From assembly GCA_964387275.1 (NCBI GenBank), contig CAYLVW010000001.1, positions 355,508 through 419,507 on the forward strand: a stretch of DNA of 64,000 nucleotides, written 5' to 3'. A model generated the notes under the pieces. The model searched no databases, was not told where the DNA came from, and saw only the letters and a program-made list of their open reading frames with translations. The translations under genes were made by a program, and so were the position numbers. The stretch comes from an uncultured Candidatus Saccharibacteria bacterium. Lineage in GTDB: Bacteria > Patescibacteriota > WWE3 > UBA101185 > UBA10185. This document shows, in pieces, positions 2,766 through 21,739 of the stretch (position 1 is the stretch's first letter; each line of letters opens with the position of its first letter).

Positions 2766-4667
2766 ATGCTTGTTTATGAATTACTAAAAAATACGAAATT
2801 TAAAAGGTTGGCTTTAACATTGCTTCTGGTTATTCCGTTTGAAGTATTGTCTCTTTTTTCGATTCATTTACCCCAGTTTATTGAGATAGCAGTTTTCAGT
2901 ATTATAATGCTTATCTTTGGTAAAAATGTAATTATTAACGGTCTAAGAAGCCTCATGCACCTAAATTTTTCTAATATAAATCTGCTAATGACAATTGCAG
3001 TATTTGGAGCTCTATATTTAGGGGAGTTAGAAGAGGCTGTTATTATTATTGTTCTTTTTGCCATAAGTGAGACATTAGAAGAGTTTGGTATTCGCAAAAG
3101 TCAAAACTCACTTGAGGAACTTGTTAAAAAAACTCCGAAAACGGCACTCATAAAAGGTCATGATGATAAAACACCTATTGAAAATATATCTGTCGGGGAG
3201 ATCCTTGTAGTAAAGCCAGGCGATTATATTCCTCTGGATTGTGTAGTTGTAGAAGGGAACTCATTAGTTGATGAGAGTACAATAACAGGCGAACCTTTAC
3301 CCAAAAGCAAATTTCCAGGTGAATTGGTATATGCAGGAACACTTAATACCCAGGGATATTTAGAAATCAGAGTTATCAAGGTTTCAAAAGATACTACTTT
3401 AGCTAAGATTGTGGAATTAACATTCCAATCTATAGAAAAAAAGTCACGTGCCACTAAATTTATTGAGAATTTTGCACTTTACTACACACCTACAATAATT
3501 GTCATTGCAACTTTACTAACAATAGTTCCTTTTTTTGTTTTCGGACAACCTTTTACTGTCTGGTTTACGCAAAGTCTTACAGTTCTGCTAATTGCGTGTC
3601 CTTGTGCTTTAGTCATTTCAACACCAATAACAATATTCTCTGCAATTGGGAATGCTACTAAAAGAGGCGCTTTAGTAAAAGGTGGTCAATTTTTAGAGGA
3701 AATGGGGAAAATAAGAGCCATAGCTTTTGATAAAACGAGAACCTTAACTAAAGGAGAGCCTCTCGTATCTGATATTGTTACTTTCGATGGGGTTTCAAAA
3801 GAAGAGCTGCTTAATTGTGTTGCCGGTGCTGAATCTCTTTCTGAACACCCTATTGCGAAAAGTATTGTTGAAAGAGCAAATACCGTAGATGGAGAAAATC
3901 ACTCATACTCAAACTTTAAATCCGTTATGGGTAAAGGTATTAGTGGGGAATGTTTAGTTTGCGTTGATAAACACCACTGCATAGGTACTTTGGAATACAT
4001 TATGGAAGAACATAAAGTTGACACCAAAGTAATAGAAATAGTTGAGAAATTTGAAAAAGAAGGTAAGACAGCGATTGTAATTAGTTCTAATAAGCACATT
4101 GAGGGAGTTATTGGTGTTACTGATACGATTAGAAGTGAAAGTAAACAAATTGTAATGGACTTAAATAAACTCGGAGTAACTTCCATCATGCTTACTGGAG
4201 ATAATGCGTCGGCAGCTGCGTATGTGTCAAAAGAAGTTGGTATTAGTGAGTTTTATGCCAAGCTTCTACCTGATGAGAAAGTTTCAAATTTATTAGAATT
4301 GGTCAGAAAATATAAAAATGTTGCGATGGTTGGAGATGGCGTGAATGATGCTCCTGCCCTTGCAACTGCTTCAGTCGGTATTGCAATGGGTGCTGTTGGA
4401 TCGGATGTAGCTATTGAAAACGCAGATATAGCATTGATGAACAATAATTTAAGCCTACTACCATTTTTGATTAGTCTTGGTAGAAAAGCTATAAGGACTA
4501 TTAAGTTAAACACTACTTTGGCAATTGGAGTAAAACTGTTTTTCCTATTTTTTGCGCTGATTGGAAAAGGTAATCTTGCCTTAGCCATATTTGCTGACGT
4601 TGGTGTTACTTTACTAGTAGTGGCAAATAGTTTGAAATTATTTAATTATGATATGGAAACAAAATAG
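2766..4667 (+). CDS. P1B-type heavy-metal translocating P-type ATPase (Cu+/Zn2+/Cd2+ type, CPC motif), without N-terminal HMA domain
   Basis: CPC in CPCALVIS of TM6, DKTRTLT phosphorylation motif, TGDN, and GDGVNDAPAL hinge. 633 aa. Confidence 0.85.
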   Translation: MLVYELLKNTKFKRLALTLLLVIPFEVLSLFSIHLPQFIEIAVFSIIMLIFGKNVIINGLRSLMHLNFSNINLLMTIAVFGALYLGELEEAVIIIVLFAISETLEEFGIRKSQNSLEELVKKTPKTALIKGHDDKTPIENISVGEILVVKPGDYIPLDCVVVEGNSLVDESTITGEPLPKSKFPGELVYAGTLNTQGYLEIRVIKVSKDTTLAKIVELTFQSIEKKSRATKFIENFALYYTPTIIVIATLLTIVPFFVFGQPFTVWFTQSLTVLLIACPCALVISTPITIFSAIGNATKRGALVKGGQFLEEMGKIRAIAFDKTRTLTKGEPLVSDIVTFDGVSKEELLNCVAGAESLSEHPIAKSIVERANTVDGENHSYSNFKSVMGKGISGECLVCVDKHHCIGTLEYIMEEHKVDTKVIEIVEKFEKEGKTAIVISSNKHIEGVIGVTDTIRSESKQIVMDLNKLGVTSIMLTGDNASAAAYVSKEVGISEFYAKLLPDEKVSNLLELVRKYKNVAMVGDGVNDAPALATASVGIAMGAVGSDVAIENADIALMNNNLSLLPFLISLGRKAIRTIKLNTTLAIGVKLFFLFFALIGKGNLALAIFADVGVTLLVVANSLKLFNYDMETK

Positions 4668-7341: not shown

Positions 7342-8622
7342 ATGGAACAAGAACTCAAATACTGCCTATATGCAAGAAAAAGCTCAGAATCAGACGAAAG
7401 GCAGGCAATGTCCATTGAGAGCCAGATCAAGGAAATGTCTGCAATTATCAAACGAGACAAGTTAAATGTAGTTGATATTAGGCAAGAAAGTCATTCCGCT
7501 AAGGTTTCTAGTGCTAGGCCCGTATTCAACCAATTAATCGATGATTTAAAGAAAGGTGAGTTTAACGCTATTTTAACTTGGGCACCAGATCGAATGTCAC
7601 GTAACGCAGGCGATTTAGGCTCTTTAGTCGACTTAATGGATAGTGGCAAACTTGCACAAATTAAAACGTATTCACAGGTTTTTACGAACAATCCAAACGA
7701 AAAGTTTTTATTAATGATACTTTGTTCACAGGCAAAACTGGAAAATGATAACAGAGGTTTAAACGTGAAACGTGGTATCAGAAACAAATGTGAATTGGGT
7801 TGGAGACCCTGCATGCCCCCGCTTGGATATCACAGTAGAGCTATAGATGGGGTAAAAGACATAGTTATTGATCCGATTCGTGGACCTTTAATAAAAGAGC
7901 TCTTTGAGCTAATAGCTTTAGTTGGTATGAGCGGAAGATCCGCAAGAAAGATGCTTTACAAAGAGAAAAACTTTAAGACCAGAAACGCTAAAGATATAAC
8001 TTTGAGTATGGTTTATAAAATTCTTCGCAACCCCTTTTATTATGGCCAATTTGAGTATCCAGTAGGAAGCGGTACTTGGTATAAAGGAAAACACGAACCA
8101 TTAATAACTAAAGAGATATTTGATAAGGTACAAGATCGTTTAGAAATCCCAGAAAAAGCGAAATGGAGATCGAAAAACTTTGCATTTACAAGAATGATTC
8201 ATTGTGGTGAATGTGGAACCATAATTGTCGCTGAGGAAAAATTTAGGAATCTTCTCGATGGAACGAAACGAAAGCATGTTTACTATCATTGTGGTAGACC
8301 AAAAGACGACAGGGAATGTCACCAACCATATCTATCCGAAGACGAATTAGTAAGTCAGCTTATCGAGATCGTGGATACTGTAAAACTTGATTCAAAGGAA
8401 ATGGGAAAGAAGATTAAGCAAGAGTTCGATAGGTATCAGACTTTCGGGAATTTAATCCTAGATGATCACTCTGAAAAAATGCCAGAGTTTAATCACACGA
8501 TTGATATTTCAACCTTTGCTAAACACATCCTAAAAGTAGGGTCTAGTGACGAAAAACGAGAAATCCTTAACCTGATGAAAACCAAGTTTCTATTGAAAGA
8601 TCGTCGAATTACACTTAGCTGA
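7342..8622 (+). CDS. Large serine recombinase (resolvase/invertase-type catalytic domain + recombinase domain + zinc ribbon)
   Basis: The N-terminal YARKSSESDERQAMSIESQ matches the serine-recombinase catalytic motif. A central recombinase domain is present, and CGECGT...HCGRP gives a zinc ribbon. Typical of phage or integrative-element integrases. Confidence 0.75.
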   Translation: MEQELKYCLYARKSSESDERQAMSIESQIKEMSAIIKRDKLNVVDIRQESHSAKVSSARPVFNQLIDDLKKGEFNAILTWAPDRMSRNAGDLGSLVDLMDSGKLAQIKTYSQVFTNNPNEKFLLMILCSQAKLENDNRGLNVKRGIRNKCELGWRPCMPPLGYHSRAIDGVKDIVIDPIRGPLIKELFELIALVGMSGRSARKMLYKEKNFKTRNAKDITLSMVYKILRNPFYYGQFEYPVGSGTWYKGKHEPLITKEIFDKVQDRLEIPEKAKWRSKNFAFTRMIHCGECGTIIVAEEKFRNLLDGTKRKHVYYHCGRPKDDRECHQPYLSEDELVSQLIEIVDTVKLDSKEMGKKIKQEFDRYQTFGNLILDDHSEKMPEFNHTIDISTFAKHILKVGSSDEKREILNLMKTKFLLKDRRITLS

Positions 8623-8668
8623 TTTCAACAATCTTGCAAATTAACAATATAGGCTTCATCATTAATTA

Positions 8669-9172
8669 ATGGGAAATTTATATGTAATTGTTGGTATCGT
8701 TCTTATCTTGGGAGTTGTACTTGGCTTATTATCTTCTAAATTTGGTGAAGATATTTCCGATAAAAAACGCCAATATAAGTATCAAAAGAAAGATTACCTA
8801 TTATCTCGTGCGGAACATCAGTTTTTTGATGTTTTAGTTGATGCATTAGGTGACCACTACTACGTCTTCCCTCAAATTCATTTAATTACTTTACTCGATC
8901 ACAAAATAAATGGACAGAATTGGAGAGGGGCTTTTAGGCATATTGACGAGAAGTCAGTAGATTTTGTGATTTGTGATAAAAGTTATATAAAACCATTAGT
9001 TGCAATAGAGCTGGATGATAAGTCTCATGGAACTGAGAATAGGATCGAAAGAGACGAAGAAGTAAAAAGGATTCTACAAGATGCAGGGGTACCCTTGTTA
9101 CGTTTCGAAAACCATGGAAGTTTTGATAAAGAAGAAATAAAAAATCGTATTATTAATGCTTTAGGAAAGTAA
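8669..9172 (+). CDS. DUF2726/NERD-like restriction-endonuclease-fold protein with N-terminal TM helix
   Basis: VDFVICD...IELDDKSHGTENRIERDEEV fits a D-(E/D)xK nuclease-like core, as seen in DUF2726 proteins. Confidence 0.35.
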   Translation: MGNLYVIVGIVLILGVVLGLLSSKFGEDISDKKRQYKYQKKDYLLSRAEHQFFDVLVDALGDHYYVFPQIHLITLLDHKINGQNWRGAFRHIDEKSVDFVICDKSYIKPLVAIELDDKSHGTENRIERDEEVKRILQDAGVPLLRFENHGSFDKEEIKNRIINALGK

Positions 9173-9376
9173 CTTCATAAAATTAGTAGCCATATAGCGA
9201 TAGAAAAGGCTGTGTAGAACACTGGTATTTGCCCTATACCCATACGGTCTAGAACCGGCACCCTCAATAAGACTATTTAATAAAAAAACGATGATAAATA
9301 AGGATAACCCATTACGGTCATCTGGAACATTGGGACTTGCCTATAACCACCTGAGTAGGGTGGAACAATGAGATTC

Positions 9377-9451
9377 TGGTGACCCTACGGAGAATCGAAC
9401 TCCGATTGCCAGGATGAAAACCTGGCGTCCTAACCATTAGACGATAGGGCC
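9377..9451 (-). tRNA. tRNA-Glu (anticodon UUC), CCA encoded
   Basis: The reverse complement folds as GGCCCTA / D-arm / CCAGG-TTTTCAT-CCTGG / GGAGTTCGATTCTCC / TAGGGTC-A-CCA, giving anticodon TTC. Confidence 0.85.
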
Positions 9452-9588: not shown

Positions 9589-11070
9589 ATGAATCTAATC
9601 AATCAAGTAATACTGTTTTTTCAATCATTTGTTCTCGCATTAACACCGATGCCTACATATACTGAGGGAGTTTTGGGACAGCCGGTAAGTTTTTTTCCAT
9701 CTAAATCTTCTTTTCAAGCCGATAGAACAGTCTCTAAATTAATATATCGTGGACTTTTTAAATACGATATCTACGGGTCTCTTGTACCAGATCTTGCTGA
9801 TAACTGGTCCATATCCGAAGATGGTATGGGTTACACAATTAAGTTAAAAGACGACCAATACTGGTCAGATGGTTCTAAAATTACCTCAAATGACATCATC
9901 TATACCTCTTTTAAAGTAGGGGATCTTTCTGGAGTAGCTACAGATAGAATAGATGAGTTAACGGTACGGTTTACACTACCTAACAAGTTCTCTCCATTTT
10001 TAAGTATGCTTACAGTGGGGATTATGAAAGACGGTTCAGAAGAAACAAACAATGGGTTACTTCCAATCAGTAATGGTAATTTTAGGGTAATGAGAATTGA
10101 GAAAAATGGCCCTCTCACTAAGCAGGTAGTGCTAACCAAAGTTAATGTCCCAACTGATAAAAAGCTTAATTATTGCGAGGGAATTTTTGCAATACCAAAT
10201 GAAGGAGGCTGCAAAATTCGAAAAATTGTGATTAGGTATTTTGAGAACGAAGAAGAAATGAGTGTTGCAGCAAAACTAGGAGAAATTGATGGGTTTGTAG
10301 CATACAATGAACATGAAGAACTAGAAAACTTCTCAAACTATAAATTCCCACTTCAAGGTGTTTACTACGCAATTTTTTTTAATACCAGAAACGATAAATT
10401 AAAGGATACAGCAATTAGGCAAAAATTGGAGAAAGTATTACCTATCCAAGACATAATTAGTTCTAAAGGTATATCAGTACAAGGCCCAATAAGTAGAAGC
10501 ATATATACAGAAAGATCAATAGTAGAAAAAAAACCGGATCTCTCATTCAAAGAAGACTTGAGTTCAACTCAACTTATACTAACTATCCCAAATACAGAAG
10601 CAATGATGCAAATTGCAGAAGAAGTAAAAAGACACTGGAGAGAAAACTTAAACATAGATGTAACAATCAGAAAAATTGATCAAAAGAATTTCCTTAATGA
10701 AGTTGTAAAACCCAGAAATTTTGAAGTTATGATATATGGACAAGAAATAGGCAGAGACCCCGATAGATATGTAAACTGGTACTCGACACAAGAAGTATAT
10801 CCTGGACTTAATTTCACAGGGTTTAGTCAAGTCAGAGCAGATAGAGCATTGGAGGAGGGAAGAAACTTTACTGAATTTGAAGAACGTTTAGTACATTACA
10901 GAGAGTTTCAAAAAGTAATTGCGGATCAGGTCCCTGTAGTATTTTTATACCATCCATATACAAATTACTACATTTCTAAATATGTTAGAGGGCTTGGAGA
11001 CAAATATACATTTGATATAACTGATAGGTTTTTGGATTTTGAGAATTGGGAAAGAATTATTACTAACTAG
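9589..11070 (+). CDS. ABC transporter substrate-binding protein, family 5 (peptide/nickel type)
   Basis: SBP_bac_5-like signature LIYRGLFKYD...PDLADNWSISEDGMGYTIKLKDDQYWSDGSKITSNDI. No permease or ATPase genes lie adjacent. Confidence 0.65.
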   Translation: MNLINQVILFFQSFVLALTPMPTYTEGVLGQPVSFFPSKSSFQADRTVSKLIYRGLFKYDIYGSLVPDLADNWSISEDGMGYTIKLKDDQYWSDGSKITSNDIIYTSFKVGDLSGVATDRIDELTVRFTLPNKFSPFLSMLTVGIMKDGSEETNNGLLPISNGNFRVMRIEKNGPLTKQVVLTKVNVPTDKKLNYCEGIFAIPNEGGCKIRKIVIRYFENEEEMSVAAKLGEIDGFVAYNEHEELENFSNYKFPLQGVYYAIFFNTRNDKLKDTAIRQKLEKVLPIQDIISSKGISVQGPISRSIYTERSIVEKKPDLSFKEDLSSTQLILTIPNTEAMMQIAEEVKRHWRENLNIDVTIRKIDQKNFLNEVVKPRNFEVMIYGQEIGRDPDRYVNWYSTQEVYPGLNFTGFSQVRADRALEEGRNFTEFEERLVHYREFQKVIADQVPVVFLYHPYTNYYISKYVRGLGDKYTFDITDRFLDFENWERIITN

Positions 11071-12184: not shown

Positions 12185-13129
12185 CTAAATTCTAAGTTCT
12201 GCTCGGAAGTATTTACGCCATATTTCAAAACCTAATTTTGAGTAAAAGTCTGTTTTGTCTGTCCATCCAATCCAACAATATTTAATGCCCTTGGACTTTA
12301 GTAGTTCAGTCCCATAAGATTTTAGAGCTAAACCAACCCCTTTACCTCTCCATTTTTCACTTACGCCTAAAGCTTTTCCGCTTCCTAATTTGTTTTCAAA
12401 TAATAGATTCCAGTTACAGTTTTCAATCTGTATACATGTGACACCAATAATCTCTTTATTGTGTATCGCCATAAAAACGTTGTTATAGTTGTTGTTATCA
12501 AAGTCTTGTTTGTAGTAGTCATGCCATTCCAAAAAGTTTTTCCGTTCGAAGTCTAGTATTTGTTCAGCATATTCAGGTGAAGAAATTTGTATTCTTATCC
12601 CCTCATTATTTATTTTTTCGTATATGCCTTTGGGTGACTTAAAAGTTTCAATATTCTGATACATATCATAGACCAGTTCGTTTTCAATCAAGAAGCCGTT
12701 TTTACTAAAAAAATTTATAGAATTAAGGTTCTCCGGTACCCCAGCCCATAGCCAGCTTCCTGCTCCGCCACCTAGTTTTATAGTCTTAACGCCAAGTTGA
12801 TCGAACCAGTCTTTTGTTGCGTTGATTAATGATGTACCTACTTTGTTATTTCTATATTCTGAGGTTACAACAACCAGCGTAATTACACCTCTATTTTCAT
12901 CACCAACTTGTTTGTTTTTTGCACTAATTACACCAACAATCTTGTTGTTTAGCTCGGCGACAAAGACACGTACTTTGTTATTAGTATCATCATACCCAAA
13001 CAATACGTTAAGCAATCGTTCTGGTGCGATTGGCCACAGTGTACCCAATTCTGAATTTGTGTAGATATCCAACAATGCCTGCTCGTCTTTTGGGTTATAA
13101 AGTCTTATGTTTAGTCTGGCTTGATTCAT
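12185..13129 (-). CDS. Tandem GNAT-family N-acetyltransferase (two acetyltransferase domains)
   Basis: Two acetyl-CoA binding segments, RNNKVGTSLINATKDWF and WRGKGVGLALKSY. Architecture resembles MshD-like double-GNAT enzymes. Confidence 0.6.
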   Translation of the reverse strand: MNQARLNIRLYNPKDEQALLDIYTNSELGTLWPIAPERLLNVLFGYDDTNNKVRVFVAELNNKIVGVISAKNKQVGDENRGVITLVVVTSEYRNNKVGTSLINATKDWFDQLGVKTIKLGGGAGSWLWAGVPENLNSINFFSKNGFLIENELVYDMYQNIETFKSPKGIYEKINNEGIRIQISSPEYAEQILDFERKNFLEWHDYYKQDFDNNNYNNVFMAIHNKEIIGVTCIQIENCNWNLLFENKLGSGKALGVSEKWRGKGVGLALKSYGTELLKSKGIKYCWIGWTDKTDFYSKLGFEIWRKYFRAELRI

Positions 13130-15387: not shown

Positions 15388-15476
15388 ATAAAAAGTATAT
15401 CAAAGTTCACATGCACAAATTGCAACGTTGTCTGTACCCTATAGTTATGGTAAAATTCGCGTCTTGGAGGAGAAAA

Positions 15477-16277
15477 ATGACAAGCATCAGAGCCAGAGTT
15501 AATTACTGGTTGGTCCAACTACTTACTTTTGTAGCATCAGTTTATCTGTGTATGTTTATAGGTGGTGTGTTAGCAAACAACCAAGCGGTTATAAACTTAG
15601 GGATACAATCATTCTTCTTGTTTTTGTCTACTTTTATTGGATCGCTTACTCTGGTACTTTTAGTTTTTGTTCATGAAAATGGGCATAAACTCGCCATGGA
15701 GGTGCAGAAGATCAGGTCTTTTGGTCCAATCATGATTCTTCCTCTAGGGGGAATTATGCTCCCGGGCAGATCTATGAGTGCTCTGGAAGGTACAATAACC
15801 ATACTGGCTGGACCTGCTACTGGAATTCTTGGCATTCCATTTTTGTACTTAGGAATGTACCAGGATAAACCAGAATATGTGGGATTAGCCCTAGTGTGGA
15901 TACTAGTAAATGCTGTCAATCTGTTACCTGTGGGGCCACTGGATGGTACCGGCATTGTTGCTAGTATTATTTCAGCAGTATCTCTAAAAGCTGCAAAACT
16001 CTACAAAAAGTTTAGTGTATTGCTGCTCTTTTTGCCTATGACTTTTGCAAGTAGCACTAACGCCTTAGTTGTGTTTGCTCTCACTTTATCTATTGTGATT
16101 CTTATGTGGTTACTAGATAACTACATGACGAAGGTTTTTAGAAAATACTGTAACAAGGATATCGCTGTAAATCCCGCGCTAACGGGCAAGCAAGCTCTTG
16201 TCAGTGCAATAACTTATGGCTTTCTAACTTTGTTACTGGGAGTTTCCTTGGTACAAGCCTTCTCGTACTTTCTATAG
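15477..16277 (+). CDS. Site-2 protease family (peptidase M50) intramembrane zinc metalloprotease
   Basis: HExxH in a TM segment (FVHENGHKLA) and the second signature NAVNLLPVGPLDGTG (LDG motif). Start set at the MTSIRARV ATG after a GGAGGAG RBS. Confidence 0.7.
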   Translation: MTSIRARVNYWLVQLLTFVASVYLCMFIGGVLANNQAVINLGIQSFFLFLSTFIGSLTLVLLVFVHENGHKLAMEVQKIRSFGPIMILPLGGIMLPGRSMSALEGTITILAGPATGILGIPFLYLGMYQDKPEYVGLALVWILVNAVNLLPVGPLDGTGIVASIISAVSLKAAKLYKKFSVLLLFLPMTFASSTNALVVFALTLSIVILMWLLDNYMTKVFRKYCNKDIAVNPALTGKQALVSAITYGFLTLLLGVSLVQAFSYFL

Positions 16278-16293
16278 CACAAGGAGAAAAGGA

Positions 16294-16746
16294 ATGAGCA
16301 ATATCACAACGGACGCAGTTAGAATTGCAGGCTCTAATGCTCCAGAAGAGGGAGACTTTGGTACTGCAACTATTCGTAATTGGGGTACTCTTAGTGCTGA
16401 AGTTCAAAGTATTATTAGAGACGACCTATACCGTGTGGAAACAGGTGGTGGTAATCTTTGGATTCAACACCCAGAAGAACAAGAAATGTATGATGACGAT
16501 TACTGGAGACAAGTCGGTGAAGATAACGCCAGATGTATTGATTGTGGTATGAACCCTTGCTACTGTGAGGATTTCCCAATTATAGATTTTTGCCTCACAT
16601 GCAAAGACCCTAATGTTATTATTTGGGATACTCTGCTTACAATGGATACTCTTGAAGCTGCTCTAGATAAAGCCATAAGATCTCATCATGAGAGCTGTAC
16701 ATGTGGTGGATTTATGATTAGTGTTAGTTTTAGTTTTACGATGTAA
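16294..16746 (+). CDS. Cys-rich cytoplasmic protein (multiple CxxC-like pairs; putative zinc ribbon)
   Basis: The C-terminal half contains CIDCG, CYC, CLTC and HHESCTC. Strong RBS AAGGAGAAAAGGAATG. Followed by a strong terminator. Confidence 0.4.
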   Translation: MSNITTDAVRIAGSNAPEEGDFGTATIRNWGTLSAEVQSIIRDDLYRVETGGGNLWIQHPEEQEMYDDDYWRQVGEDNARCIDCGMNPCYCEDFPIIDFCLTCKDPNVIIWDTLLTMDTLEAALDKAIRSHHESCTCGGFMISVSFSFTM

Positions 16747-16753
16747 AACTCAC

Positions 16754-16800
16754 GCCCGGCAAAAGGTAAGTATAACTTCTTTTTGCCGGGCTTTTTTTAC
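16754..16800 (+). terminator. Rho-independent terminator
   Basis: GCCCGGCAAAAG...CTTTTTGCCGGGC hairpin followed by TTTTTTT. Confidence 0.65.
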
Positions 16801-17002
16801 AACTTAAAAGATCAAGAATCAACCCAAAAATAAAAAGCAGGCTTCTCACTTATATTAAAAATAAATATTTTTAAACTCACTGGTGCCAGTTCTCTAAACC
16901 CAATCTACTATAGGTTTTACATTTAGCCAGTAACTTGCTAAAATCACATCCGCAGAAATACTGCAGACCTTTGACAATATGTGAGAACAGAGAGGAAAAG
17001 CG

Positions 17003-17719
17003 ATGAGGATTCCTATCAAGCTGGAAAGTAAACACTATGTTATTTTAGCTTTAATAGCTATTCCTTTTATCATTCTACTTAGAATCTTCTATAAATGGCT
17101 TGCTATTCCATTTGTTTTTGAGGAGTTCCTGTTTTTTAAGGGAGCTATTTGGGATCCGTTTTTGATGTCAATGCCACTAATTCTTGGAGGCATTGCTTTA
17201 AATGTTTTCCATATGGCATCTACTACAAATCCACCAGAAGTGCATGCTAATGCTGGTAGTATTCCGTTTACGGGATTTCTTACCAGTTTAATGGCAGGTG
17301 TGATGGAGGAGATTGTTTTTCGTTGGGTTTTGTTTTATGCATTTTTTGGAATGTTCTGGTTTATAGATAGAAACATTCTGGGAGGCTTCTTACAAGCTCA
17401 ATTCACAAATAATCTAAGCTTTATTAACACCTTCCTTGTTTTTGGGGCACCAGAAATGATCTCAAACCCCACTAACTGGGCAACCGGTCTTGCTATTCTT
17501 TCGTCCAACTGGAAGTTCCAAGAAGGACATTCCTACCAAGGGATTTCCGGGCAGATTTTTAGTTGGCTAGGTGGTTTGGTGTTTTTTAATGTTATGTTTG
17601 TGCATGGGCTTTTTGCAGCCATGTTGGTGCATTTTGCTTTTGACATGCTGACATTTGTAATGCTTATGGTTGATTTGTTCCTGGAGGAAAACAGTGACAA
17701 ATTCTATGCCTGGTACTAA
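17003..17719 (+). CDS. CPBP-family (CAAX protease / Abi-type) intramembrane metalloprotease
   Basis: Motif 1 EEIVFR (EExxxR), motif 2 FNVMFVHGL (FxxxH) and motif 3 HFAFD. Multi-pass membrane protein. Confidence 0.7.
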   Translation: MRIPIKLESKHYVILALIAIPFIILLRIFYKWLAIPFVFEEFLFFKGAIWDPFLMSMPLILGGIALNVFHMASTTNPPEVHANAGSIPFTGFLTSLMAGVMEEIVFRWVLFYAFFGMFWFIDRNILGGFLQAQFTNNLSFINTFLVFGAPEMISNPTNWATGLAILSSNWKFQEGHSYQGISGQIFSWLGGLVFFNVMFVHGLFAAMLVHFAFDMLTFVMLMVDLFLEENSDKFYAWY

Positions 17720-17756
17720 CAAACAAAAACCCTACAAAACAACAAGGAGGCGAAAC

Positions 17757-19019
17757 ATGGCTCGAGCAATCAAAACTGACCTTACCCAAGATCAAGCTAC
17801 TATTTTGATTGATGCAGGTAAAGCAGTTAGAGGACTTGAAGAGAATCTTAAGTTTTGCTTTCAAGAACGTGATTGGATTATCCGTCAAACAGCATTGGCG
17901 CTGCTTTTGGGCAGACACGTGCTGATTTATGGTATTCATGGTGCCGCTAAGTCTTCTTTTGCAGAACGTGTGTTTGGCTCAATTAAGGGTAAGGGTACTA
18001 GTGGTGAAGATCCTCAGATTTTTTCTATTCAACTTGATGTTGATACAACTAAATCTGATTTGGTTGGCCCTATTAGTATTGCTGATCTTAGAAATAGTGG
18101 CCTAAATGTGAGAAATCTTGCCGGCCATCTGGCCGAAGCACACTTTGCTTATTTGGATGAAGTACTTGACGCTATCTCACTTTTGAGGGGCATTAATGAT
18201 ATTCTTCATGAACGACGCCTTATTGAGGGTAGACAAAATATCCGAGTGCCGCTTCTTACAGCTATTGGTGCTACTAATAGATCACCTAGTGAGGTAGAGG
18301 CGATGTACCCGGGGCTTAATTTGGGTGCTGTTAATGATAGATGGGATTTTGTTGGTAATGTTGGGTACGTTAACGGTATTGCTAGTGTTACCAGCATGGT
18401 TATGAACGGTCTCTTTGGTAAACTCCCGTTTGTCGAAGTGCCTTTCCATCTTATTCAACAGTCCGCTCAAATTCTTGCTAACACTAATATGTTCCCAGAT
18501 GACCAATATGTCCAAGCCTATGTTGAACTTATCACCAAAGTTAGGGAACGATTTAAGAAAGACATGAAACGGTCAATTTCAGATCGTCGTATTAATAGAC
18601 TTACTCAAGTAGTTGAAGCTAATGCTATTCTTTATGGCAGAACTGATCTGACTGCTGAAGACCTCCATGCTATCGGGTATGCACTTTGCCCATCCGGCGA
18701 CTCTGATGAATATAGCGTATTTAAGGAAGTTGCTGATGGGGTCGTTGGTGAATTTGGTGCTGCGATTAATGATAAGACAGACGCAGCTATTAAAAATGCA
18801 CTTAGACGAATTAGCACAGATATTATGGGCATTAAACGAAGCCTTAGTGATCCGAAGTGGAAAGCTGATGTAACCAATGTTGGACCTGCTCTCAAACAGG
18901 TTTCAGAGCTTAAGGATGAGCTTCTTAAACTAGCTCCTAAACTTGAGTCAACTGAGCGCGAGATTAAAAAACTTGTTGATGTGCTCGCTGACCTTAAAGA
19001 CAAGATTAACGATATCTAA
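17757..19019 (+). CDS. MoxR-like AAA+ ATPase with C-terminal coiled-coil extension
   Basis: Walker A HVLIYGIHGAAKS, a MoxR-type segment QLDVDTTKSDLVGP, Walker B FAYLDEV, and sensor-2-like GRTDLTAEDLHAIG. Start chosen at the MARAIK ATG after AAGGAGG. Confidence 0.7.
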   Translation: MARAIKTDLTQDQATILIDAGKAVRGLEENLKFCFQERDWIIRQTALALLLGRHVLIYGIHGAAKSSFAERVFGSIKGKGTSGEDPQIFSIQLDVDTTKSDLVGPISIADLRNSGLNVRNLAGHLAEAHFAYLDEVLDAISLLRGINDILHERRLIEGRQNIRVPLLTAIGATNRSPSEVEAMYPGLNLGAVNDRWDFVGNVGYVNGIASVTSMVMNGLFGKLPFVEVPFHLIQQSAQILANTNMFPDDQYVQAYVELITKVRERFKKDMKRSISDRRINRLTQVVEANAILYGRTDLTAEDLHAIGYALCPSGDSDEYSVFKEVADGVVGEFGAAINDKTDAAIKNALRRISTDIMGIKRSLSDPKWKADVTNVGPALKQVSELKDELLKLAPKLESTEREIKKLVDVLADLKDKINDI

Positions 19020-20179
19020 TGGTTACTCCCTTAAACCTCGAGATTCTATATTGGGTACTGCTATTTATAGCACTACTTATCTTCTATTGGCTTTGGAACA
19101 AACTTAATAACCAATGGCAACAGGATAAATCTGAAGCAACAGGTATTGGTCAGGGAAGTGGATCCCAAGGATCTGGATCAAATTCCGGATCATCTGGTGA
19201 ATCTACAGATGGCCAAGGGCAGTCTACTAGTTCAGGTGAAAATGAGGACGATAATAAATCACTAAGTGATTACTTTGAACAGCTCAGAAAAGCACGTAAG
19301 AAATCTATGGTTGAAAAACTACGCGATGCTGCAAAAGATAAAGATTTGGCTGACTTTATTCAATCCCAAGCTGGCAAAGGCTCTAGCGACATAAGCACTT
19401 GGGATCCTGATAGAATGTATGAAGTTGCAGAAATGATAGGCGAAGATGTCTTAGACATGCTAATCACAAGTCAATCTAAACTTCCAATTAGTATGGATCT
19501 TACAAACAGAAAGAGCACTAAACTTGACGAAGTAAGATCGGGAGGAATCTTTAGGGATACAGCTAAGGTTAGAGGTCCCGAAGACTACCCAGATTTAACT
19601 ACTGAAGAATTAGCTCTTGATGACGATCATCTTTACACGAGAATCTCAACTGGAGAAGCTCGTAGGGTCCGTAGGTATGATCAAAAAGAAGAGATCGACG
19701 TTTTCGGTATGCTAAGAGATCGCTCAGGGTCAATGCAAACTAAGATGCCTCATTCGGGTGTTTCTAGAGATACATGGGCCCGTGGTGTAGTGCTAAGATT
19801 TGCAAGAGACGCAAGTAAAGGTAAAGTTAGGTTTTTCTTTAGAGATTTTGATGAAAGAGTTAAACCTATTCAAAGAGTCTATGGACCTAGTGATGTTTCA
19901 GGTTTTATTGATTATCTTGTAAGACACCCCGCTCCTGCGGATGCTGGAACTAATATCTTAAATGCTATCTCTAGAATGGTTAAAGATATTAAAGCAGATC
20001 CTTCCATAAAAATTAGAACTGCAGATATTGTTCTGATTTCGGATGGAGATGATGGTAGTGTTAGTGATGTTGATGGAGTAAGAGAGATCCTAGGTGATGT
20101 TAAGTTACACACTATCGTAATCGGCGGAAGTAATCCATATCTTAAGGCTGTTTCTACAACTTATAAGGAACTTCGCTAA
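19019..20179 (+). CDS. Membrane-anchored von Willebrand factor A (VWA) domain protein with Gly/Ser-rich low-complexity linker
   Basis: N-terminal TM helix. GSGSQGSGSNSGSSGE linker. MIDAS motif DRSGSM and downstream VLISDGDDG. Start overlaps the upstream stop (TAATGG). Confidence 0.7.
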   Translation: MVTPLNLEILYWVLLFIALLIFYWLWNKLNNQWQQDKSEATGIGQGSGSQGSGSNSGSSGESTDGQGQSTSSGENEDDNKSLSDYFEQLRKARKKSMVEKLRDAAKDKDLADFIQSQAGKGSSDISTWDPDRMYEVAEMIGEDVLDMLITSQSKLPISMDLTNRKSTKLDEVRSGGIFRDTAKVRGPEDYPDLTTEELALDDDHLYTRISTGEARRVRRYDQKEEIDVFGMLRDRSGSMQTKMPHSGVSRDTWARGVVLRFARDASKGKVRFFFRDFDERVKPIQRVYGPSDVSGFIDYLVRHPAPADAGTNILNAISRMVKDIKADPSIKIRTADIVLISDGDDGSVSDVDGVREILGDVKLHTIVIGGSNPYLKAVSTTYKELR

Positions 20180-20194
20180 CTCACATATTCTTAA

Positions 20195-20237
20195 AGCCCC
20201 ATACACCAAATTAATGGTTTATGGGGCCTTTTTTTAT
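20195..20237 (+). terminator. Rho-independent terminator
   Basis: AGCCCCATA...TATGGGGCC hairpin followed by TTTTTTT. Confidence 0.6.
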
Positions 20238-20332
20238 GTCTAATCATCGTTCAAATTCAGATTTGTTCAAATACCAACCCTATAGTATAATTTGCAAGTT
20301 CGTTGAGAACTCAATAGTGCCAAGGAGCAATT

Positions 20333-21739
20333 GTGAAAGCTGAAACCCTGCACATTAGACTAGCAAATATGGCAGCGCGATCTAGATTTATGACTGGTCT
20401 TGCTATTGTTACACTTATCGCAGCTTATCTTGGATTACATATCTTTGTCGACAGTTTTGACTGGACCTACAAGGGATATGGTTTTCTTATTTGGGCAGTT
20501 TTTCTGGTGCAATTTATATTTGCATGGGTTGTTACAGGATTTTTTGTACCTATCTTAAAGTCTCAAAAGGGAGTTCATGATATCAGTACTGTAAATGATA
20601 TGTACAGAATACGTGCAGGTAGATTGATTGACAGTGTTGCAGAAACAACGGGATATAACAAGGAAGTTCATAGACTTATTGTAAATGATACTACCCCTAA
20701 TGCGTTTGCAGCAGGCACAGGATCATCCACGTGTGTTGCGCTTAACTCAGGGCTTCTTAATATTTTGGATGACGATGAAGTAGAAGGGGTTATTGCTCAC
20801 GAATTTGGGCATCTTAAAAATAATGATATTTTCATTACGTTATTTGCTACAAGTTTGGTGGGTGCTTTTATCATTATCGGTCGCTTTATCATGAACGCGG
20901 GTATTTACAACCCTAAATCTTCCAAGAAAAATAACAGTTGGGTGTTGATTGCTCTTGGATTTGCCATTATGGCTTTTGGCTATATTTTTGCTCCTATTCT
21001 CACTGCTTTTATCAGTAGACAGCGAGAAAATCTGGCTGATCTTTATGCAAGTAGTTACGGGTATGGTGAAGGCCTTAAGAAAGCGCTGGCCAAGCTAGCT
21101 GCTTACAAGGGTAAAACTAAGCCAATTGTTGAAAATGCTGCTAGTCTTTATATCAACCAGCCTGTGACTGATTTTATTGGAAGTATATTTTCTACCCACC
21201 CCCCTATTGCAACTAGAATCAGCAATATTGATAATTTTATGAGCTCCGATGAAGGTAGGATTCCGGATACGCTTGAAAGTATTTTGAAAAGCTTTATTAC
21301 GTGGGTAGTCGTTCCTGCTACTGGTGCAATTGTAATGGCGTTTTCAGGTAAGTTTACGGATCTTTCAGGTATTTTTGGGATTCCTTATGTTTACTTGGCT
21401 TCTGTAATGTGGTTACTTGCTGTAAGCACACTGGTGGGCTCTGTGTCCACTAATTATTCTAAGTCAATATCGAATTGGATTCTCATTGCAGCTGGGTTTG
21501 TTTATCTCCTCGCATTTTGGGCAAGTGGTATGGTTGCAGTTAATCTTGGAAGCGAGTTGGGAGGTATTTTCGCAACAGTTGTTGCAACAATTATGTTTTG
21601 GGCTTGGGCAGTAAAACCAGCTACAGCAATGTTAGGACAGTATTTTGGTATTATGTCACTCGCTAGTGACTTTACGAATTACGCATCTTACATCTACGCT
21701 GTAAGCATTTTGGTGACTTTGGGGCTTAGATTCTTCTAG
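20333..21739 (+). CDS. Peptidase M48 (HtpX-like) membrane zinc metalloprotease with extended C-terminal multi-TM region
   Basis: HEFGH (HExxH) in VIAHEFGHLKNND, flanked by TM helices. GTG start after AAGGAGC. Confidence 0.7.
   Translation: MKAETLHIRLANMAARSRFMTGLAIVTLIAAYLGLHIFVDSFDWTYKGYGFLIWAVFLVQFIFAWVVTGFFVPILKSQKGVHDISTVNDMYRIRAGRLIDSVAETTGYNKEVHRLIVNDTTPNAFAAGTGSSTCVALNSGLLNILDDDEVEGVIAHEFGHLKNNDIFITLFATSLVGAFIIIGRFIMNAGIYNPKSSKKNNSWVLIALGFAIMAFGYIFAPILTAFISRQRENLADLYASSYGYGEGLKKALAKLAAYKGKTKPIVENAASLYINQPVTDFIGSIFSTHPPIATRISNIDNFMSSDEGRIPDTLESILKSFITWVVVPATGAIVMAFSGKFTDLSGIFGIPYVYLASVMWLLAVSTLVGSVSTNYSKSISNWILIAAGFVYLLAFWASGMVAVNLGSELGGIFATVVATIMFWAWAVKPATAMLGQYFGIMSLASDFTNYASYIYAVSILVTLGLRFF

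Follow-up and report, generated by a model that had tools for sequence, protein, structure and literature searches.

Pairs of a MoxR-type AAA+ ATPase and a VWA protein are very widespread, clients are known for few of them, and the role of the RavA-ViaA pair is still debated. MoxR/VWA pairs act on an adjacently encoded client, as in NorQ/NorD, which inserts FeB into the membrane enzyme cNOR (PMC13036017, PMC9976466). In this system, a 'finger' of the VWA protein sits in the AAA+ pore, the C-terminus of NorD lies on the ring, and force is applied via the NorD linker (PMC13036017). RavA/ViaA acts at the inner membrane (PMC9489729). MoxR-vWA cores with a third component make up the ternary systems, which fall into the VMAP, iSTAND, FtsH and beta-propeller classes (PMC7159879). 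CPBP proteases, for their part, are common among bacteria, and little is known of how they are regulated. Several bacterial CPBP proteins, S. aureus MroQ/SpdC and streptococcal Abx1, work with partners. Myxosortase is likewise a bacterial CPBP protease that works with a partner protein (PMC11980579). Here, three adjacent genes for a putative CPBP protease, a MoxR ATPase and a membrane-anchored VWA protein are described from an uncultured Candidatus Saccharibacteria bacterium (GenBank assembly GCA_964387275.1). They lie in a stretch of 64,000 nucleotides (contig CAYLVW010000001.1, positions 355,508 to 419,507), which is referred to as the window and by whose numbering all window positions are given.

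A combination of CPBP, MoxR and VWA was not found described among the full texts of 8 million papers, a coverage outside which the subscription-only literature falls; within it, the CPBP-MoxR-VWA cassette is undescribed. This agrees with an earlier interpretation of the same DNA, made from its letters only and called the sequence-only reading here, which could not match the gene combination to a described system.

Conservation of the CPBP, MoxR and VWA gene triad

The first gene of the triad (17003-17719, + strand) encodes a putative CPBP (Rce1-like) polytopic membrane protease of 238 aa, recognized by three motifs and a near-threshold match to PF02517. It is followed by the gene of a RavA-like MoxR AAA+ ATPase of 420 aa (17757-19019, + strand) with bpMoxR, AAA_5 and AAA_lid_8 matches, and by that of a membrane-anchored ViaA-like VWA protein of 386 aa (19019-20179, + strand), assigned from its metal ion-dependent adhesion site (MIDAS), its structural model and an hhalign comparison. 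The MoxR gene starts with the ATG at 17757, which is preceded by a good Shine-Dalgarno sequence (AAGGAGG), and the start codon of the VWA gene shares one base with the MoxR stop codon.

Further loci were found via the contigs of CPBP homologues (41-52 % identical), and one locus (L036) was added through a VWA representative. On every CPBP-homologue contig with enough downstream sequence (L001, L003, L006/L007, L008, L011 and L012), a bpMoxR-type ATPase of ~420 aa and then a protein of ~355-385 aa were encoded downstream of CPBP, and both could be identified as orthologues of the window MoxR and VWA proteins by BLASTP and hidden Markov model (HMM) searches. The arrangement of CPBP, MoxR and transmembrane (TM)-anchored VWA genes was thereby observed in 8 loci from 7 lineages: the window, L001, L003, L006, L008, L011, L012 and L036. 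The order is identical in all loci, with inter-gene gaps between a 4-nt overlap and 37 nt, and it is held despite an amino acid identity of only 31-53 %. All three proteins have few close relatives among 5.8 billion proteins. Host labels were obtained for two loci, one on a metagenome-assembled genome (MAG) of the candidate division WWE3 and one on a Pseudobdellovibrionaceae MAG with AT-rich contig flanks.

The triad is embedded in unrelated surroundings. Genes for a D-Ala-D-Ala ligase and a cytidylyltransferase flank it in L003, RF-1 and CdaA genes in L008, an SBP_bac_5 gene in L011, and SBP_bac_1 and VanW genes in L036. In L006, one flank has PspC/LiaF-type genes and the other a ClpB-like AAA+ gene with E2 and JAB genes. 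With the exception of the SBP_bac_5 gene of the window and L011, no recurrent accessory gene could be identified around the triad loci. The proposal of the sequence-only reading that a membrane protease is functionally tied to MoxR/VWA gains support from this conservation in 8 loci with unrelated flanks.

Two of these neighborhoods hold observations in their own right. The SBP_bac_5 protein of the window (9589-11070) is 55 % identical to that of the WWE3 contig L011 (4075-5499); its gene is the sole non-triad gene common to any two loci, and the sharing looks like residual synteny. It points to a WWE3-like bacterium of the candidate phyla radiation as the origin of the window. Directly downstream of the triad in L006 (6915-13741, also in L007) lie a gene for a 157-aa protein, the gene for the ClpB-like AAA+ protein (603 aa), three E2-CBASS-like genes and one gene encoding a Prok-JAB peptidase. 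This set resembles the ubiquitin-like conjugation sets of some defence and FtsH-ternary systems and was seen in this lineage only.

In the window, the triad stands between genes for an M50 protease and a Cys-rich protein on one side and an M48 protease on the other. Homologues of these three proteins were not found near the 7 other triad loci when all open reading frames (ORFs) of the loci were searched by BLASTP, and the matches obtained were confined to the Logan copy of the genome to which the window belongs (L002). An M48 gene would be detectable downstream in 6 loci (2.9-10 kb of flank) and the M50 and Cys-rich genes upstream in 3 loci (3.6-10 kb). The three-protease arrangement therefore appears to be peculiar to this genome. 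Of the two proteases that the sequence-only reading had considered as consistent flanks of MoxR-VWA in relatives, CPBP was linked to the pair in 8 loci and M48 never recurred.

Signals that could delimit a transcript were also observed outside the window. A TGn-type -10 sequence is located 60-85 nt 5' of the CPBP start in L003, L006, L008 and L011, and a stem-loop with a T-run follows the VWA gene as a terminator in L003, L006, L008 and L011/L012, both as judged by eye. It is concluded that the functional unit is, with high probability, a self-contained three-gene operon and that the M50, Cys-rich and M48 genes are bystanders.

The MoxR and VWA proteins as a RavA/ViaA-like pair

The MoxR protein matched bpMoxR (PF20030) with 64 bits, in addition to AAA_5 and AAA_lid_8, and its matches in the PDB were E. 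coli RavA chains only (E 7.6e-11). No variation was observed among 7 orthologues in G59xxG62xA64K65 of Walker A, D134/E135 of Walker B, T173/N174, R195 and D276/R277; both Walker motifs, sensor 1, the arginine finger as well as sensor 2 are intact. The Walker A motif had been called unusual in the sequence-only reading, a view that has to be given up, as GIHGAAKS is a normal MoxR form (GxxGxAK[ST]) comparable to GPPGIAKS in E. coli RavA and GxxGTAK[ST] in relatives. The C-terminal extension of ~110 aa (about residues 310-420), taken for a long coiled coil in the sequence-only reading, has no Pfam match. Neither the LARA domain (PF20265) nor the RavA C-terminal domain (PF12592) could be identified in it or elsewhere in the protein, both of which were matched by the E. 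coli RavA control, and the NCBIfam RavA model scored 51.8 bits versus a cut-off of 681. The MoxR protein has no TM segment.

The E. coli RavA control scored 191 bits against bpMoxR, three times the value of the window protein. Since RavA scores higher, the bpMoxR match is not diagnostic of a conflict system, and it was rejected as a marker of the Aravind-type conflict systems. On the sequence evidence, the bpMoxR label means RavA-like and not conflict system. With 100 bits, PHROG 19600 ('ATPase') is matched along nearly the entire MoxR protein and scores above every Pfam model; ATPases closely related to this type are therefore encoded by some phages, although the VWA and CPBP proteins gave no viral hits.

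The VWA protein starts with an N-out TM helix carrying a [DE]IxxW motif, followed by a disordered linker rich in Gly, Ser and acidic residues, a four-helix region, a hairpin and the C-terminal VWA domain. In the linker, the predicted local distance difference test score (pLDDT) is < 50 at residues 47-69. A scan of 1.84 billion representatives identified 276 relatives (E <= 1e-3), 22 of them with E <= 1e-30; the best 150 of the 276 mostly measure 340-390 aa, with alignments that cover the greater part of the query. The MIDAS (DxSxS...T...D) is nearly invariant in 71 sequences, with D234, S238, T311 and D342 present throughout and S236 in at least 90 %. The window protein as a single sequence had no Pfam match, VWA_CoxE included. 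Among seven orthologues, two matched VWA_CoxE (best E 1.6e-5) and four matched VWA_2. The AlphaFold model (pLDDT 89.5) gave 210 PDB matches at E <= 1e-3 in Foldseek, and the top ones among the matches listed are VWA domains, BatB (3ibs) first. The TM-anchored VWA protein with a MIDAS of the sequence-only reading is thus confirmed by the model, its fold matches and the near-invariant motif.

When the VWA family profile was aligned with E. coli ViaA, a probability of 93.9 % was obtained by hhalign (E 1.6e-7, 220 columns). The alignment pairs query residues 127-369 with ViaA residues 206-452 and extends upstream of the VWA core. An N-terminal TM helix is present in 67 of the 71 relatives, and as 62 of these 67 have more Lys and Arg residues after the TM helix than before it, the VWA domain is predicted to be cytoplasmic. 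The MoxR and VWA proteins are a predicted membrane-tethered RavA/ViaA-like pair.

The anchor helix sets a part of the family apart. The [DE][IV]xxW motif is found in 15 of the 16 best-scoring VWA representatives and in 2 of the 55 others, and residues I9, W12, L15 and L19, which are invariant in the triad VWA orthologues, lie on one face of the helix. The VWA genes with the anchor motif had an upstream CPBP gene in 7/7 loci, those without it (L037, L038 and L042) in 0/3. The genes that lie upstream of the pair at these three loci encode a 170-aa protein with a signal-peptide-like N-terminus (L037 39-551), a protein of 270 aa with an internal duplication (L038 213-1025) and, as a cut ORF, at least 137 aa (L042 2-415).

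The CPBP protein and its clade-specific elements

The three CPBP motifs are well conserved. E102, E103 and R107 (EExxxR) are invariant in 11 triad-type homologues and in a combined set of 22 sequences, which adds to the 11 homologues the triad-type protein of L036 and ten solo relatives that are more distant. F172 and H176 (FxxxH) and H210 are invariant too, and D214 (HxxxD) is present in at least 90 %, one relative apparently having Asn by eye. The window protein scored 16.6 bits with PF02517, below the gathering cut-off of 22.4, and 10/11 members matched this profile over nearly its whole length (best E 2.7e-6). The AlphaFold model (pLDDT 80.4) is all-helical. The CPBP assignment of the sequence-only reading is therefore upheld by its motifs and falls short in the Pfam score. 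The protein is regarded as a putative divergent CPBP protease that looks catalytically intact.

Two elements distinguish the triad-type proteins. In the window protein, a TTNPPEV loop lies between hydrophobic segments two and three, and a KxYxWY tail is present at the C-terminus. The NPPE loop was observed in 11/11 triad-type CPBPs and in 0/12 solo relatives, and the same numbers were obtained for the C-terminal [KR]xYx[WF]Y tail; the solo relatives end right after the last TM helix. They are 30-37 % identical, come from Melainabacteria/Obscuribacterales MAGs and various metagenomes, and neither MoxR, VWA nor any conserved neighbor gene was found nearby. The N- and C-termini of CPBP are predicted to be cytoplasmic because they carry most of the Lys and Arg residues (positive-inside rule), and so is the NPPE loop because two helices lie between, as judged by hydropathy and not by a dedicated predictor. 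The CPBP termini, the NPPE loop, the VWA domain and MoxR would thus share the cytoplasmic side.

Horizontal movement of the cassette and its inverted repeat

In three AT-rich hosts, the GC content at third codon positions (GC3) differs strongly between the triad and its flanks. It is 0.61-0.73 versus 0.25-0.32 in L001, 0.49-0.58 versus 0.25-0.32 in L003, and 0.40-0.45 versus 0.20-0.28 in L008, and the step coincides with the triad edges in all three. No GC3 contrast between triad and flanks was observed in the ~50 % GC hosts L006 and L036. Since the triad GC3 is far above that of the flanks in the three AT-rich hosts, the cassette was transferred horizontally as one unit.

In the window, the GC3 contrast is weak (0.26-0.38 for the triad versus 0.21-0.34). 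The GC content between 14.3 and 21.8 kb is raised to 0.39-0.41, compared to 0.33-0.36 elsewhere in the window, and this rise is attributed to amino acid composition because it is largely carried by codon positions 1 and 2 (for MoxR, GC1 is 0.58 and GC3 is 0.30). A recent island bounded by tRNA-His was considered for the window and is not supported: flanking direct repeats were not found, and the GC rise lies mostly in codon positions 1 and 2. A phage or plasmid origin was rejected, as the VWA protein had no tblastn match in the phage and plasmid collections and two IMG/VR scans gave nothing.

An inverted repeat brackets the cassette, with one arm 13-50 nt before the CPBP start and the other at or just past the VWA stop. 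In the window, 15 of the 17 bases of the 5' arm (CTTTGACAATATGTGAG, 16969-16985, + strand) are complementary to the 3' arm (CTCACATATTCTTAAAG, 20180-20196, + strand), which lies directly behind the VWA stop codon; the energy-based test was weak for these arms (p about 0.1). The corresponding arms of L011/L012 (L011 136-153 and 3296-3313) are complementary at 16/18 positions and form a duplex of -34 kcal/mol (p < 0.004), and those of L003 (about 9952-9964 and 13088-13100) form ~11 perfect base pairs with -28.4 kcal/mol (p 0.003). No complementarity between 5' and 3' arms was observed in L006, L008 and L036. The arm sequences differ from locus to locus. The repeat could serve pairing of the 5' untranslated region with the 3' end of the mRNA or could be a relic of mobilization. 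L011 carries three tandem copies (3296-3360) of a ~20-nt unit that corresponds to the end of the VWA gene with its stop codon (TGCTTATTGTAATCAATTAG); the near-identical L012 has a single copy.

Gene layout of the interval and its surroundings

The triad lies among six co-directional + strand genes within 15411-21739 (~6.3 kb), where the sequence-only reading had counted seven. The first is the M50 protease gene (15477 or 15411 to 16277, + strand), whose product scored 44.1 bits with Pfam Peptidase_M50 versus a cut-off of 27.2 and has readable HENGH and NxxPxxxLDG motifs. The gene of the Cys-rich protein (150 aa; 16294-16746, + strand) starts 17 nt past the M50 stop codon, and the two may be a pair of their own. 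The Cys-rich protein contains the two CxxC pairs and the HHESCTC motif that had been read in it, and no match was found in Pfam, NCBIfam, PDB sequences, PHROG or PADLOC. Its C-terminus (...HHESCTCGGFMISVSFSFTM) has Cys residues followed by a short hydrophobic tail, and a signal peptide is absent.

The M50/Cys-rich unit ends with an intrinsic terminator (16754-16798, + strand) with a stem of the 17-bp class and a T-run, which marks the left boundary outside the cassette (dG -25.9 kcal/mol, z -7.9). A promoter-like site of the cassette (16916-16944, + strand) consists of TTTACA, a 17-nt spacer and TAAAAT with a TG before the -10 hexamer; 10/12 consensus positions are matched, and it is a consensus match only. 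Behind the VWA gene lies the intrinsic terminator of the cassette (20196-20236, + strand), recognized by its folding energy (dG -19.4 kcal/mol, z -4.0). For either terminator, 0/200 shuffles folded equally well. Both had been predicted in the sequence-only reading and do fold strongly; they were missed by a simple scanner because their loops are long.

The M48/HtpX protease gene (20333-21739, + strand) has a GTG start with a Shine-Dalgarno sequence, and a TATAAT-like -10 box was seen further upstream by eye. Its product scored 102 bits in Pfam, the M48 domain covers residues 98-301, and the remaining ~165 C-terminal residues are hydrophobic by eye only. The M50, MoxR and M48 identities given in the sequence-only reading all pass the Pfam cut-offs (44.1, 64 and 102 bits). 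M50/Cys-rich, the triad and M48 are three separate transcription units, split by the two terminators. The module of three proteases and a zinc-ribbon-like protein that had been proposed does not hold, as the M50, Cys-rich and M48 genes are not linked to the triad in relatives and terminators lie between; the three protease families stand in a row by coincidence and do not make up a module.

The window as a whole is ordinary, AT-rich chromosome (36 % GC), with genes for LeuRS, FolD, a NifS-like protein, P-type ATPases and a PilB-like ATPase, and with nine tRNAs scattered over it. The stretch 7342-9451 holds genes for a large serine recombinase (Resolvase, Recombinase and Zn_ribbon_recom) and a DUF2726 protein next to tRNA-Glu (9377-9451, - strand). 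This stretch may be the edge of an integrated element unrelated to the triad.

Proposed mechanism and alternative explanations

The balance of the evidence tips, by a small measure, towards a triad operon encoding a complex in which the AAA+/VWA pair would control an intramembrane protease. The three proteins would form one membrane complex, in which the VWA anchor helix would pack against CPBP in the bilayer. The MIDAS face, the MoxR ring or both would engage the NPPE loop of CPBP with its invariant E79 and the C-terminal aromatic tail. A MIDAS binds an acidic side chain, for which the clade-specific E79 of the NPPE loop is the candidate. ATP hydrolysis by the MoxR hexamer, transmitted via the VWA linker as in NorQ/NorD, would switch the protease on, either through conformational gating or by loading it with its catalytic metal, and the outcome would be ATP-controlled intramembrane proteolysis. 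The patchy, mobile distribution of the cassette points to an accessory stress or conflict function.

Several observations weigh against this proposal. Distant MoxR/TM-VWA pairs of the same family (L037, L038 and L042) have a non-CPBP gene upstream, which suggests that the pair can work without CPBP and that CPBP is perhaps not its client; pairs of this family may be able to exchange their third partner. Scanned singly, the window CPBP and eight relatives scored 16.6-22.1 bits or had no match, versus the PF02517 cut-off of 22.4. The CPBP model had no Foldseek match in the PDB at E <= 0.001, and two profile searches of the PDB never reached Rce1. The metal dependence of CPBP proteases is itself debated, and the sample comprises 7 lineages only, all of them on metagenomic contigs.

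The broadest alternative, that all six genes form one membrane quality-control or signaling module, deserves hardly any credence. In its favor, all six genes are read in one direction and lie side by side within 6.3 kb, and the GC content is slightly raised across 14.3-21.8 kb. However, strong terminators split them into three transcription units, M50, Cys-rich and M48 homologues are absent near the 7 other triad loci, and the GC rise is mainly found at codon positions 1 and 2, i.e., reflects amino acid composition. That CPBP is a mere passenger gene and that the MoxR/VWA pair serves another client is very unlikely too. The distant pairs of the same family without CPBP would fit such a passenger, but the order is kept at 31-53 % identity with genes that overlap by up to 4 nt or lie at most 37 nt apart, the three genes were co-transferred according to the GC3 boundaries, and clade-specific signatures are present in both CPBP and VWA. 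Slightly more weight, though still little, is given to cleavage of the VWA protein by CPBP in or near its N-terminal helix, which would free VWA/MoxR from the membrane in the style of regulated intramembrane proteolysis. A single-pass anchor with a disordered linker is a typical layout of intramembrane-protease substrates; the VWA protein has such an anchor and a disordered Gly/Ser linker, and the [DE]IxxW anchor motif is essentially confined to pairs with an upstream CPBP. The conserved helix face (I9, W12, L15 and L19) fits stable helix packing equally well, however, the CPBP-specific cytoplasmic tail and loop would be left unexplained, and we know of no precedent for a CPBP protein that cuts the N-terminal anchor of a partner.

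One more alternative addresses what the triad does in the cell and does not conflict with the proposed mechanism. The triad could belong to the anti-phage or conflict systems of MoxR-vWA 'ternary' type, in which AAA+/VWA would sense an invader and the CPBP effector would cleave a membrane or envelope protein, leading to growth arrest or exclusion. This is considered unlikely, yet it is the alternative with the most in its favor. The cassette is mobile, patchy and found in varied contexts, MoxR-vWA cores with interchangeable third components have been described (PMC7159879), and the GxxxTAKS P-loop of the FtsH and beta-propeller classes (PMC7159879) resembles GxxGTAK[ST], which is present in 6/7 triad MoxRs. 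MoxR matches PHROG 19600 at 100 bits, but no relatives were found in the phage, plasmid or IMG/VR collections, and 0 PADLOC-DB 2.0 families were matched by the seven proteins scanned. The bpMoxR match is not diagnostic in view of the 191 bits of E. coli RavA. In L006, the cassette is followed by the ClpB-like AAA+ gene, the three E2-CBASS-like genes and the JAB peptidase gene; such defense-like neighbors were seen at this one locus only, and no accessory gene recurs. Furthermore, the VWA protein carries no effector domain at its C-terminus, and the third components of the four described classes are all absent.

Control of the CPBP protease by the MoxR/VWA pair thus remains the preferred explanation. 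With its genes locked together, the compact triad is a tractable system for studying both the clients of MoxR/VWA pairs and the regulation of CPBP proteases. The CPBP tail, the NPPE loop and the VWA anchor motif, which mark the linked clade, are the candidate contact elements.

Comparison with known systems

Among the closest described systems is RavA-ViaA. RavA is the best PDB match of the MoxR protein (E 7.6e-11), with which it shares the AAA_5 and AAA_lid_8 domains and a GxxGxAKS Walker A, the VWA profile aligns to ViaA beyond the VWA core, and the genes are adjacent and overlapping as in ravA-viaA. RavA-ViaA, too, is active at the inner membrane (PMC9489729). In contrast to RavA, the triad MoxR lacks the LARA and RavA C-terminal domains and has the ~110-aa extension instead, the VWA protein has a TM anchor in place of the N-terminal domain of ViaA, and the operon includes the CPBP gene.

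The Bat operon of Bacteroides (MoxR-DUF58-BatA/BatB) resembles the triad in its N-terminally TM-anchored VWA proteins, and BatB (3ibs) was the top structural match. It differs in that the triad MoxR is RavA-like and has no AAA_3 match at E <= 0.01, that no DUF58 gene was found in any locus, and that the triad has a single VWA gene. A Bat operon has several VWA genes together with TPR partners, and the triad has none of the latter. Without a DUF58 gene and an AAA_3-type MoxR, a Bat-type operon was rejected; the pair is not of the BatA/B type that the sequence-only reading had mentioned.

The partnered CPBP proteins myxosortase, MroQ/SpdC and Abx1 are polytopic membrane proteins with EExxxR, FxxxH and HxxxD/N motifs like the triad protein, whose clade is divergent and, for the window protein and the eight relatives scanned singly, stays below the PF02517 cut-off. 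To our knowledge, none of them is coupled to an AAA+/VWA pair.

The NorQ-NorD system, like CbbQ-CbbO and CoxD-CoxE, combines a MoxR hexamer and a VWA adaptor encoded beside the client, and the client of NorQD is an integral membrane enzyme that is remodelled for metal insertion by way of the VWA linker (PMC13036017, PMC9976466). Membership of the triad in the NorQD, CbbQO or CoxDE families was not found at the sequence level. The presumed client of the triad would be an intramembrane protease, not a redox enzyme.

The MoxR-vWA ternary systems share with the triad a MoxR and vWA core with a conserved third gene, which in the triad is kept in 8 loci from 7 lineages. The iSTAND class has N-terminal TM segments and a four-helix region ahead of the vWA domain, as in the triad, and the FtsH and beta-propeller classes have a GxxxTAKS-type P-loop (PMC7159879). 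Unlike in these systems, the third gene of the triad encodes CPBP, and PMC7159879 mentions neither 'CAAX' nor 'Rce1'. No effector is fused to the triad VWA protein, which ends at residue 386 (334-386 aa in 71 relatives), and the identifiable hosts are small-genome bacteria of the candidate phyla radiation (CPR) type, not multicellular bacteria. As a tentative proposal, held with clearly less confidence than the mechanism itself, the triad might represent a fifth MoxR-vWA ternary class, in which a RavA/ViaA-like pair is hard-wired to CPBP as a split, in-trans analogue of the FtsH-type AAA+ membrane proteases and spreads horizontally among small-genome CPR-type bacteria. If true, a RavA-like ATPase could have its first defined client, and an energy-coupled regulator of a CPBP protease would be known for the first time.

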